Shown in pieces: positions 35,022-41,456 of a stretch of 64,000 bases of DNA (position 1 is the stretch's first letter; each line of letters opens with the position of its first letter). The DNA is from Okamejei kenojei (lineage: Eukaryota): assembly GCA_035221665.1 (NCBI GenBank), contig CM069151.1, positions 29,450,001 through 29,514,000 on the forward strand, given 5' to 3'. The position numbers and the translations under genes are program-made. The notes beneath the pieces are model-generated. The model had not been told where the DNA came from and did not search any database. It was given only the letters and a program-made list of their open reading frames with translations.

Positions 35022-38000
35022 TTATAAGTTGAGACGGTCAGGAGGTTTAATACATCTTGATGACCGTCGCAGAACTGGAGCTTCAGGAGGTAATGGCGTT
35101 TCAATAGCTGGTGGTACATATATTGCTTGGTCATCAACTTCACTCATTGTTATTTAGATTTACAATTTTAGAATTTCTTATAGAAGCTTCCATAGGGGAT
35201 GCTGGAAGTGTTGGAGGAAGTTCTCGATTAGTGTTATCAAGAAGTGACAGAGCTGATGGAGAAGACGGACATGGTGCAAGGTCATGAAGTGAGACAGTTG
35301 ACTGGCGTCCATCCTGATACTTGATAGTTGCATAAGATGGGTGGACATCAGTCATAGACATAGAAACATAGAAATTAGGTGCAGGAGTAGGCCATTCAGC
35401 CCTTCAAGCCTGCACCGCCATTCAATATGATCATGGCTGATCATCCAACTCAGTTTCCCGTACCTGCCTTCTCTCCATACCCTCTGATCCCCTTAGCCAC
35501 AAGGGCCACATCCAACTCACTCTTAAATATAGCCAATGAACTGGCCTCAACTACCCTCTGTGGCAGAGAGTTCCAGAGACTCACCACTCTCTGTGTGAAA
35601 AAAGTCTTTCTCATCTCGGTCTTAAAGGATTTCCCCCTTATCCTTAAGCTGTGACCCTTGTCCTGGACTTCCCCAACATCGGGAACAATCTTCCTGCATC
35701 TAGCCTGTCCAACCCCTTAAGAATTTTGTAAGTTTCTATAAGATCCCCTCTTAATCTCCTAAATTCCAGAGAGTATAAACCGAGTCTATCCAGTCTTTCT
35801 TCATAAGACAGTCCTGACATCCCAGGAATCAGTCTGGTGAACCTTCTCTGCACTCCCTCTATGGCAATAATGTCCTTCCTCAGATTTGGAGACCAAAACT
35901 GCACGCAATACTCCAGGTGTGGTCTCACCAAGACCCTGTACAACTGAAGTAGAACCTCCCTGCTCCTGTACTCAAATCCTTTTGCTATGAAAGCTAACAT
36001 ACCATTCGCTTTTTTCACTGCCTGCTGCACCTGCATGCCTACTTTCAATGACTGGTGTACCATGACACCCAGGTCTCGCTGCATCTCCCCTTTTCCTAAT
36101 CGGCCACCATTTAAATAATAGTCTGCTTTCCTGTTTTTGCCACCAAAGTGGATAACCTCACATTTATCCACATTATACTGCATCTGCCAAACATTTGCCC
36201 ACTCACCCAGCCTATCCAGTCACCTTGCAGTCTCCTAGCATCCTCCTCACAGCGAACACTGCCCCCCAGCTTAGTGTCATCCGCAAACTTGGAGATATTG
36301 CCTTCAATTCCCTCATCCAGATCATTAATATATATTGTAAATAGCTGGGGTCCCAGCACTGAGCCCTGCGGTACCCCACTAGTTACTGCCTGCCATTGTG
36401 AAAAGGACCCGTTTACTCCTACTCTTTGCTTCCTGTTTGCCAGCCAGTTCTCTATCCACATCAATACTGAACCCCTAATACCGTATGCTTTAAGGTATAC
36501 TATTCTCTTATGTGGGACCTTGTCGAAAGCCTTCTGGAAGTCCAGATATACCACATCACTGGTTCTCCCTTATCCACGCTACTAGTTACATCCTCGAAAA
36601 ATTCCACAAGGTTCGTCAGACATGATTTACCTTTTGTAAATCCATGCTGACTTTGTCCAATGATTTCACCACTTTCCAAATGTGCTGCTTCCCATCTTTA
36701 ATAACTGACTCTAGCAGTTTCCCCACTACCGATGTTAGACTAACTGGTCTGTAATTCCCCGTTTTCTCTCTCCCTCCCTTCTTAAAAAGAGGGGTTACAT
36801 TTGCTACCCGCCAATCCTCAGGAACTACTCCAGAATCTAAAGAGTTTTGAAAGATTATCACTAATACATCCACTATTTCCTGAGCTACTTCCTTAAGTAC
36901 TCTGGGATGCAGCCTATCTGGCCCTGGGGATTTATCGGCCTTTAATCTATTCAATTTACCCAACACCACTTCCCGACTGACCTGGATTTCACTCAATTCC
37001 TCCTTTGACCCACAGTCCCCTGCTATTTCAGGCAGATTATTTATGTCTTCCTTAGTGAAGACGGAACCAAAGTAGTTATTCAATTGGTCCGCCATATCCT
37101 TGTTCCCATGATCAACTCACCCGTTTCTGACTGCAAGGGACCTATATTTGTTTTAACTAACCTCTTTCTCTTCACATATCTATAAAAACTTTTGCAGTCA
37201 GTTTTTATGTTCCCTGCAGTTTTCTTTCATAATCTATTTTTCCTTTCCTAATTAAGCCCTTTGTCCTCCTCTGCTGGTCTCTGAATTTCTCCCAGTCCTC
37301 TGGTATGCTGCTTTTTCTGGCTACTTTGTACGCATCATCCTTTGCTTTGATACTATCCCTGATTTCCCTTGTTATCCACGGATGCACTACCTTCCCCGAT
37401 TTATTCTTTTGCCAAACTGGGATGAACAATTTTTGTAGTTCATCCATGCAGTCTTTAAATGTCTTCCATTGTATATCCACCGTCAACCCTTTTAGAATTA
37501 ATTGCCAGTCAATCTTGGCCAATTCACGTCAAGTCGGTTCAACTTCATCAACAAAAGGCTCGTTCTTATTTGATCGGACATAACGACGAAGCAACACGGT
37601 CCCTGGGCTTGTCAACCATGATGGCAGAGAAGTACCACTAGAAGAATGCCGTTTGAAGTTAAAGAACCGCTCATGTGGAGTAGGATTGGTAGCAGTTGAC
37701 AGTAGAGATCTGATGGAGTGTAATGCATCTGGTAGAACACATTCCCAATGCTGATCTGGTATGTCATCTGACTTTAAAGCCAGTTTCACTGCTTTCCAAA
37801 TGATTCCGTTATACCTCTCAACCTGACCATTTCCAATAGGATGATATGGTGTAGTTTTACTTGTTGCAATTCCTCTTTTAGAAAGGTAGTCCTTTAAATC
37901 TTTCGACATGAATGAGGTGCCCCTATCAGAATGTACGTAACTTGGAAATCCACAGAAAGAAAACAGCTGATCTAAACATTTGATAACCATAGCAGCTGAC

Positions 38001-40564
38001 ATATTCGGACAAGGAAAAGCAAATGGGAACCTCGAATATTCGTCAACTAAGGTAAGTATATAAACATTTCGAGAGGAGGATGGTAAAGGCCCTTTGAAGT
38101 CAATGCTCAAATTTTCCATAGGTTGAGTAGCTTTGATCAATCTTCCTTCTTCAGGACGGAAGAACCTTGGTTTTAATTCAGCACAGATTCTACATGAAGC
38201 ACACGTCATCTTCACATCTTCTGTAGAGAAAGGTAAGGTTTTGGAACGAACATAGTGTAATAAACGAGTGACTCCAGGATGACACATCCCATTGTGAAGA
38301 TCAGTGAGTGCAGAAGAATGAACAGAGGCACAAAATGCTCGAGTTAATGTATCCGGAGCAACATTATCCTTACCAGGGTGGTACTCAATTGAATAACTAT
38401 GTGCAGATAATTCAATCCTCCATTCATGAATTTTACTTTTCTTAATCTTCGTTCGCTTTCGATTTTCCAGCATAAAAGCTACTGAACGCTGATCTGTTAT
38501 CACAGTGAAGTGCTGGCGAGCAAGGAAATGACTCCATTTTCTCACTGCTTCAATAATTGCTGTAGCTTCCTTTTTGACAGATGGGTAGTGCAATTCACTA
38601 CCTTGGAGAGTACGAGACATGAAAGCCACTGGTCGTCCTCCTTGATTTAATGTTGCTGATAATGTTAAATCAGAGGCATCACATTCAACAACAAAGGGGA
38701 GATCCTCGTCAATGGCGTGTAATGTCGCAGATTCCAATTGTTTCTTTAAAGAAGTAAAAGCACCAATTGCTGTAGAGTCAAGCGGGAAAGATTTTGCTCT
38801 AATCAAAGGCTGAATTTTGTCAGAAAAATTTGGTATCCATTTTGCATAATATGCAAACATCCCAAGGACCCTTCGTAGAGAGTTTAATGTAACTGGAACA
38901 GGTATCTCTTGGAGTGGGCAGAGTCTTTCTGGATCAGGCTTGATTATATCATTTCCAACCCAATAACCAAGAATATTAATTGATGACACTGATGTTATTG
39001 ACTTAGCCTCATTTAATGTTAGATTGTTAGAATGTACAACATCTAAAAACCGTTGTACATTTTCATCATGTTCAGCTTGGTGTTTTCCTGCAATAGTTAT
39101 GTTATCAAGATAAGGGAAAGTATCTTTAAGGTTTTCCTGTTCAACAAGTTTGTCCATCTCTCTCTGAAAAACAGCCACGCCATTAGTTACACCAAAAGGA
39201 ACTCTGCAGTAGTGATAGATCATTTCCCATTTGCTTCAAAAGCAGTGTATTTCTTCTCTGATTCCTTCAAGGGAATTTGGTAGTAAGCACTTTTTAAGTC
39301 AAAAGTAGAGAATATCTTATACTTAGCTAATGTATTGATAATCTCTTCTATTCGAGGTAGTGGATATGCATCAAGGTCCGTGAACTGGTTTATAGTTTGA
39401 GAGTAATCAATGCAGAGTCTTTTCCTATGTCTCTCCAAGGGGTCCTTAACCACGCCAACTTGTGCCCTCCAAGGGGGAAGAGCTGGGTTCCTATCATCTT
39501 TCTAAAGTGTCTTGATAATTTGGCTTTTGAGTGATTTGAATAATGAGACATTGTCAGAGCCATCGAGATTTCCTTTATTTGAAGGAATTATGGTTAGATT
39601 GAGACGAGACAAACTTATAAAACTTCAACTTGTTCACTTATAAAACTTTCTGAACTGCCAGAATCAAGTAATACATTAAGTGTATGGCCATTAATGGATA
39701 CCATTGTAGCTGCATGAGACAAGCTCTGAGGAAATGCAGCTGTAATTGCACATAAAGAAGGCGTATACATGGCAGCAGTCACAATTTTTGTAGTTGCTTT
39801 GGACTTGCATTCTCTAGAATAATGTCCCTTCTTGCCACAACTATTACAAGTTGCCTCTCGAGCAGGGCATATCTCTCTCTTATGAATATTACCCCCGCAA
39901 AAGTAACAGTTCCTTTTTGAATAATTATATGCTGCAGCAAGGGCACCTTTATCTGTAGAAATTGTTTCGGTTTTCTCCATATTTGTACTTGGGTGAAATT
40001 CGTTTGTAGTAGTTGCAGCAGAATACACATTAGATGAGCCATAAGCATCTGAATTTTTCTGAGCCAAGTCCAAAGAGTAAGCTTGATTGTAAGCTGACTG
40101 TAAATCCAAGGTTTTGAGTTCTAATAGTCTCTGTCGTATTAAAGGCGATGCCAAACCATTGATAAAAGAGTCTCGAATAACTTCCTGTCGATATTGATCA
40201 GCCGTAACTGCTTTGAAGGCACAGTCTTTACTAAGTCTTTGAAGTTCTTGTAAAATTCATCAAGTTACTCACCAGGTTTTTGTTTCCGAGTAGCAAGGAG
40301 GTGTCGAGCGAGTATCACGTTGGGTGTCTTAACGAAGAGTCTGCTTAGTACATCAATAGCAGAATCATAAGTTGTACATTCCTCTATGTACTCGTATACA
40401 TCAGAAGAGACAAAGCTTATTAATGTCTTAAGCCTGTCTGGTGCACCGTTGCCACAATCCTCAAAGAAGTTATTTAGTATACGAAGCCAGTGCTTCCAAT
40501 TCTTTGCAGCAGCAGGTGAGTTGGGATCCAGATCCAAGCGTTGGGGTTTCAATAGTTTCTCCAT
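35022..40564 (-). pseudogene. Gypsy gag-pol, frameshifted and interrupted by CR1
   Basis: ORF pieces 40265-40564, 39615-40154, 39220-39453, 37529-39223 and 35140-35352. The final frame ends LRRSSRCIKPPDRLNL* with the stop at 35022-35024. Confidence 0.9.
35354..37531 (-). mobile_element. CR1 LINE (about 2.2 kb, 5'-truncated) nested in the Gypsy integrase
   Basis: [36 protein letters not shown] and KFADD motifs. (TTTCTATG)n tail. AGTC occurs at both junctions. Confidence 0.95.
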
Positions 40565-40606
40565 CCCAAGTCGGACTGTTTGACTTGTAAGATAAGTTGC
40601 TTAAAT

Positions 40607-40832
40607 TGTTGTGAGGTAAATGAAACTTTCACTACTTGTAATTTACTTAACTTTATTTAAGCTTTAAGCAACTTATTTCTTTAATACATTACTCAGAAAC
40701 GTCTGGCAAACATGGCTGATTCCGCAGGCTTTTCCCGCCCGAAATACTTTGCACATGCGCACACTCCGGGAATGTCCTGTGCATGCGCACACTATAGAAG
40801 AACCCCGCACATGCGCACATGCGCCCACTTCA
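40607..40832 (-). repeat. 5' LTR (226 bp)
   Basis: TGAAG...CAACA on minus; AATAAA at 40657-40652; lies 42 nt upstream of the gag ATG. Confidence 0.96.
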
Positions 40833-41456
40833 ATCCCTTTAGTAGAAACAAATGTGGAGCTAAGAACAACCGGCAACCAATAAATTGCATCAATTTATCA
40901 CTGACATTTTCCTTCTCCTTTGCTGTCTATGATGGGCCTAAATGGAGTGATCCCAGGCATTGGAAACTAACGGAGCACTACAATGTTTCCTCGAGGATTG
41001 TGAGATTGTAATTTCTTTTCAGACATTCAGCACCATCTGTGTTTTTTAAGGACTGCATGCTGCATTTGTTCAGATGCTGAGCTGCTTTCGGAATCTTTTT
41101 GTACTTTAAATGGGCTGAATCAGCTCTGTTCTGAAGTAACGCCAGCATTAACCCCATGTTGGTTAGTGTGTTCCCTCAGACTCAGCTTCTGGCAAGAGAG
41201 TGTCTGAGTAAATGTGTACTGTTTTTCCCTTTCCTTTTGCTGTGTTTCTGAGCAATCCAGTGCTAGAATGCACTGAGACCACAAAGCTCTTGCTGATACC
41301 ACTGTGCAGGGATTTGTGCATTGCCATCATTTATCAAGAGGGGCCAATCATCTTTGGCCCTTGTGTGAATTGAGAATTTAGGGCAATTAAGTGGAATGGA
41401 AATGAAATGTGTTAGGGCAGGTGAATGTGAAGGTCTGTGGATATGATGAGCCTTGG

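Follow-up and report, generated by a model that had tools for sequence, protein, structure and literature searches.

A chromodomain-free Gypsy element of Okamejei kenojei with a PBS complementary to its own LTR, consistent with tRNA-independent self-priming

Self-priming has so far been attributed to the Tf1/sushi chromoviruses and to one plant copia lineage. According to the available portions of the published accounts, Tf1 and Tf2 of Schizosaccharomyces pombe, Tj1 of S. japonicus and the Tf1/sushi group carry, like the element described here, a PBS complementary to their own LTR and no tRNA site (PMC7175516, PMC4600332, PMC5341516). In Tf1 the transcript's initial 11 bases are reported to pair with the PBS and to be released by an RNase H cut between bases 11 and 12 (PMC7175516), and a DNA copy of the PBS is reported at the 3' end of about half of Tf1 cDNA (PMC11042837). 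As far as the accessible text goes, a rule requiring at least 10 bases of PBS-LTR complement starting 0–5 bases after the LTR (PMC6317226) has extended self-priming by prediction to the Tcn1 clade of fungi and mosses, which is however chromoviral, and to the TAR/Houba/Osr-1 lineage, which is however plant Ty1/copia (see also PMC4600332, PMC5341516), with excerpts of further sources dealing with the known self-primed systems (PMC5006619, PMC6934838, PMC5371799). Priming of this kind is experimentally established for Tf1, whereas for the element described here we infer it.

The window analyzed is the whole 64,000-nucleotide stretch of Okamejei kenojei DNA, and the element in question occupies positions 40832 to 34790 on its minus strand. 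TG..CA LTRs, a TSD, a polypurine tract and the domain order gag-PR-RT-RH-IN identify it as Ty3/Gypsy. The 5' LTR (40832-40607, 226 bp, TG...CA type, TGA...CACAACA) and the 3' LTR (35007-34790, 218 bp) differ by five substitutions and one 8-base indel, the TSD GGGAT flanks both ends of the element (40833-40837 and 34789-34785), and the polypurine tract (PPT) lies at 35023-35008. The coding region consists of gag with two CCHC knuckles and the start of the protease (39615-40564), RT in two frames followed by RNase H and the integrase zinc finger and core (37529-39501), and an integrase C-terminal tail without chromodomain whose final residues are RRSSRCIKPPDRLNL before the stop (35022-35354). 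Nested within the C-terminal part of the integrase is a LINE fragment of approximately 2.2 kb on the same, minus strand (35355-37528, ends approximate) with short tandem repeats at its end, which we take to be CR1-like. This insertion, a stop at codon 100 of gag and frameshifts, one of them in gag, are defects of a copy that is dead. The initial annotation had described short LTRs, a 5' LTR ending in CAACA and followed by a 1-nt gap, a 5-bp TSD and a two-CCHC gag, and each of these features was recovered, the gap being a single spacer A at 40606. The U3 region at 40832-40735 is made up of repeated GCGCATGTGC-like units, a motif that presumably resembles an NRF1 site, and one unit accounts for the 8-base difference in LTR length.

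Directly after the spacer, the 14-mer TTTAAGCAACTTAT at 40605-40592 (core 40605-40595) is the exact reverse complement, at 14 of 14 positions, of ATAAGTTGCTTAAA at LTR bases 40676-40663, an arm that constitutes the predicted self-primer and contains a conserved 11-base core (40673-40663). When the LTR was shuffled 3000 times preserving dinucleotides, the longest complement to the first 30 post-LTR bases never exceeded 12 (0/3000 above 12). The perfect complementarity between PBS and LTR originally claimed stands, coordinates included. A 14-base complement one base past the LTR also lies within the bounds of the published self-priming rule (PMC6317226), as given in the accessible part of that paper. 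Between arm and PBS, both included, the predicted folding energy is -19.8 kcal/mol (z -4.6, 300 shuffles). Directly after the arm a predicted hairpin opens at base 12 (40645-40662), and the LTR AATAAA (40657-40652) lies downstream of the arm and mostly within the loop of this hairpin, 19 bases from the arm start and thus in agreement with the approximately 20 nt given previously. In agreement with the initial annotation, no TGG was found next to the 5' LTR; the first TGG occurs 39 bases past the LTR end, and no tRNA end in the set compared is matched there over more than 5 bases. That set was incomplete, with 63 of 317,778 candidates scored to give 34 distinct genes with 11 anticodons, and within it the longest match of the window PBS to a tRNA of the same genome was 6 bases.

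To place this complementarity in the wider family, relatives were collected. Homologues of gag were found in cnidarians, molluscs, crustaceans, echinoderms, a tunicate, a hagfish, a stingray, a fluke and the nematodes Trichinella and Trichuris, all as protein records without DNA context, and the closest protein matches, which reach 75%, are not among these named records. A metagenome scan provided DNA context at 80 loci, of which four were excluded as matches without the gag start and 76 were examined. At 17 loci the LTR end could be fixed from a second LTR; 13 of these, representing approximately five families, carry a perfect complement of 11–17 bases, each beyond 200/200 shuffles, and the other four a complement of 7–10 bases. 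Those two-LTR relatives whose LTR end is clean share the one-base spacer. With a motif as anchor, 63 of the 76 loci were readable and 13 were not, these having by eye a short or missing 5' end or being decayed. Among the anchored loci, which are redundant and include many near-copies, pairing of the core was complete (11/11) in 38 of 63 and at least 10/11 in 50 of 63, and fell below 10/11 in 13 of 63. Nineteen distinct arms, the window arm included, were selected at a score of at least 10 and pair on average at 10.8/11 positions with their own PBS versus 7.2/11 with the PBS of other families; only one of 342 cross-family pairs reaches 11, a count unchanged by a search of the entire upstream stretch. 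At nine of the 11 core positions, two to four Watson-Crick pair types occur among these arms. The proposed check on co-variation of PBS and LTR in relatives therefore came out positive, with pair types switching and the helix kept, and these sequence comparisons are strong evidence that the pairing represents a helix conserved across the clade. Counted against the self-priming reading set out below are the 13 anchored loci under 10/11, the 13 unanchored loci, the redundancy of the loci and the preselection of arms. Searches elsewhere added little: the viral-contig scan with gag found no relatives, the same scan with a mixed Pol alignment returned three outgroup elements only, and the ESM Atlas yielded generic Gag clusters only. 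One short contig (L065) holds more than one element unit joined through an LTR, with an open frame of 1203 aa, and is possibly a circular or tandem form.

The same data bear on whether the primer is a tRNA, a half-tRNA or another host RNA, with the match to the LTR being incidental. The small size of the tRNA set leaves some room for this explanation, but the longest tRNA match of 6 bases and the lack of a TGG beside the LTR speak against it, as does the finding that PBS and LTR arm vary together between families, a pattern that a host RNA of fixed sequence would leave unexplained. We consider a host-RNA primer very improbable.

Self-complementarity in place of a tRNA site, strongly supported by covariation, makes self-priming the likely mechanism, and we assign a probability of roughly 0.8 to the reading that the family of the window element is primed in the manner of Tf1 by its own RNA instead of a tRNA. 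Of the tRNA-independent priming proposed in the initial annotation, the replacement of a tRNA-type PBS by self-complementarity is thus upheld by covariation, and self-priming itself is likely, as judged from sequence. If the element behaves as Tf1 does, its transcript would start at the arm or slightly upstream of it, by a few bases (the AG of core bases 1-2 may be initiator-like), and the 5' part of the transcript would fold back onto the PBS. The element's RNase H would then cut between bases 11 and 12 (40663/40662) to leave a 3' OH, from which RT would extend across the spacer, U5 and R as far as the cut before jumping to the 3' R. During plus-strand synthesis the primer would be copied and the PBS thereby renewed from the arm sequence, which would account for arm and PBS changing jointly with G-U pairs nearly absent. 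This helix would additionally enclose the 5' poly(A) signal in two thirds of families.

As controls, five elements of the same genome with TGG-type sites were compared and have an LTR complement of 5–7 bases, within the range of shuffles, and a sixth TGG-type element from the viral collection has one of 6 bases. A chromodomain-bearing element from the viral collection (L241) served as positive control and has a 10-base LTR complement two bases past the LTR end, a length reached by 0/500 shuffles (L241:1-150). A sushi-like chromovirus family of the same genome (L204, L205 and L214) is also expected to self-prime; in the four copies inspected its perfect complement is only 6–7 bases, with an imperfect duplex including G-U pairs in two of three copies, and this weak complement counts against the preferred reading. 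In L204 and L205 the best partner, an imperfect G-U duplex, lies approximately 210–230 bases before the LTR end, and by eye the PBS of this family can also be paired with the last bases of U5.

The anatomy of the helix was counted in 24 hand-picked representatives of the clade. The 264 core cells comprise 258 Watson-Crick pairs, three G-U pairs and three unpaired positions. In all 24 the helix ends abruptly at base 11, base 12 being paired in none, and base 13 is C in every representative. In 20 of the 24, compared with 6.4 expected from shuffles, base 12 begins a stem; hairpin energies alone do not go beyond shuffles (z mostly -1.4 to +1.3), whereas the position of the stem does. No TATA box at a fixed distance was apparent by eye across families. 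At its 5' side the boundary is gradual, with pairing at positions -1 to -5 in 20, 21, 19, 17 and 14 of the 24 and at -6 in three, so that the unbroken helix has a median length of 14.5 bases and usually continues 1–7 bases 5' beyond the core. The 14-mer originally treated as a unit is therefore complete in the window copy (14/14), but the invariant part across the clade is an 11-bp core with an optional 5' extension. Because pairing continues 5' past the core, the length and start of the primer are not fixed by these data and may differ from those of Tf1.

AATAAA or ATTAAA occupies arm positions 6-11 in 16 of the 24 representatives, which provides another possible reason for the helix. It might act as a regulatory switch hiding the poly(A) signal of the 5' LTR, priming being achieved by something else, and would be confined to the 5' end because only there does the PBS follow the LTR; the frequent extension of pairing 5' of the core would fit such a role. 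However, in eight of the 24, the window element included, the hexamer lies outside the arm (and in seven no poly(A) hexamer was found nearby), yet helix, base-11 end and spacer are unchanged. In addition, the partner strand lies exactly at the PBS position and no other primer site was found. A switch in place of priming is accordingly unlikely, and masking of the poly(A) signal may be a second use of the helix rather than an alternative to self-priming.

Further copies in the same genome were examined for the state of the helix. A query consisting of LTR and gag yielded 1011 candidates, 40 of them scored, and a search with a hagfish homologue again led to this family in the 30 loci read. In the 58 distinct copies read, the core was kept at 11/11 in 48 and the full complement at 14/14 in 47; the remaining copies show single uncompensated changes or a deletion, a pattern expected of decayed copies. 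A pattern search also located a sister subfamily at approximately 45 places (including L244-L273), 82–89% identical to the window element in the main aligned piece. Fifteen of its copies were read, in which an unchanged 11-base core follows from the construction of the search pattern, and the flanks beside this core differ from those of the window family. The pair at -1, A-T in the window family, is G-C in nine of the 15 and unpaired in six, the same mismatch being common to four copies. One contig from each of two runs belonging to two studies (X10 and X12) has an opposite-strand alignment starting exactly at 40595, where sense-U3-like sequence of the sister subfamily adjoins, and this gives the loop the appearance of an inversion or fold-back at the 11-mer, the junction not being placeable within the 11 bases (window 40595-40673). 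A micro-inversion in the genome, an artefact of the library or an RT intermediate could each account for these contigs; the idea that they belong to a family sharing only R-U5-PBS was dropped after comparison with copies of the sister subfamily.

Such observations are relevant to self-priming by a route other than that of Tf1, in which the 3' OH at base 11 would come from a longer 5' fragment, the action of a host nuclease or, in trans, another RNA's end. The taper of the helix at its 5' boundary and the two contigs with an apparent join or inversion at the 11-mer and adjoining upstream sequence are in line with such a route, but the core has the 11-base length of Tf1, a mismatch at -1 is common to four of the 15 sister-subfamily copies, and the two unusual contigs may have arisen as artefacts of the libraries or through minor inversions in the genome. 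We regard such a route as improbable, slightly more so than the poly(A) switch, and retain Tf1-type self-priming as the best reading.

Placement of the element was approached through domain content and phylogeny. The initial annotation's statement that a chromodomain is lacking was confirmed, the final residues of pol being LRRSSRCIKPPDRLNL before the stop; neither a chromodomain nor a Tf2-type SH3 domain was present in the four full-length relatives and the one window tail piece scanned, and PF00385 was absent from the 120 homologue proteins listed. The same scan was positive for SH3 in L204 and L205 and for the chromodomain in L204. The best PDB match was Ty3, which is not informative on clade placement. 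In trees of unbroken natural frames (RT-RH, integrase and RT-RH-IN) the element clade is recovered at 100/100 or 100/99, Mag-type rows (A/B and C) group without it at 99/95, 96/92 and 94/89, and the chromovirus branches sampled, two in number and represented by the fish-type family and L241, unite at 100/100 with the element clade outside. The deeper order leans towards the element clade with Mag in RT-RH (86/64 and 92/90) and towards the element clade with chromoviruses in integrase (81/77), and the combined RT-RH-IN tree favours neither. These trees are unrooted and carry long-branch warnings, with outgroup labels taken from PBS type, domain order and chromodomain rather than from reference sequences; a long-branched Gypsy-like element of unusual composition (L243) is unplaced in them. 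The non-chromoviral status proposed earlier is supported by domain content and by trees with two chromovirus branches sampled, while a sister tie of element clade and chromoviruses is not rejected by the AU test (p 0.125).

The Mag-like affinity also proposed was not sustained, since the Mag A/B and C representatives group without the element clade (96/92; 94/89) and a TGG-type PBS is lacking. Two CCHC knuckles and an RRSxR-type integrase tail are presumably traits shared with the Mag lineage. Short LTRs and ACAACA-like termini are likewise shared with Mag A, B and C/SURL, as far as the accessible account of that lineage shows (PMC3601003), but the Mag-type elements of the same genome, unlike the window element, have TGG-type sites without LTR complement. 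Saci-2 and CsRn1 were set aside as relatives on their gag motif (CCCH and CHCC, respectively), as given in the available part of the source (PMC2582038). With Tf1, in the portions of the literature available, the element shares the 11-base core and the Ty3/Gypsy domain order. In contrast to Tf1/sushi, its clade is separate in trees and lacks both a chromodomain and a Tf2-type SH3; it has two CCHC knuckles, in unbroken relatives one gag-pol frame of approximately 1200 aa, a one-base spacer and a helix that often continues past 11 bases and often holds the poly(A) hexamer. By signature, then, the element appears to resemble Tf1, and by the features compared it appears to belong neither to the chromoviruses nor to Mag.

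Unplaced Gypsy clades of marine invertebrates outside Mag include MolGy, PolGy, GyRex1-like and LGF, which are known to us from the available portions of three papers (PMC6238403, PMC3587641, PMC8220671). The clade may already bear one of these names or a remark in Repbase. The term PBS is absent from the available portions of the mollusc-clade and polychaete-clade papers, and the literature searched, as far as its text was accessible and with Repbase and key papers lying outside it, held no self-priming report for a chromodomain-free animal Gypsy clade. At somewhat less than even odds, the data may reflect an ancient clade, extending from cnidarians to vertebrates and undescribed in print, whose tRNA-free priming is independent of Tf1/sushi and uses its own fixed three-way junction (11-bp helix, unpaired base 12, hairpin and one-base spacer) that also gates poly(A) in most families.

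With 19 natural arm variants, a fixed helix end and an adjacent stem, the cut site is predicted to the base, which opens the RNase H step to a direct test with short RNAs. Annotation software that relies on a tRNA PBS is liable to overlook or misjudge such elements. The occurrence of the same signature in a large chromodomain-free animal clade would mean that the trick either predates the chromoviruses or arose again, and both origins would bear on how LTR elements adopt or drop a host tRNA and, presumably, on their exposure to tRNA-fragment defence.
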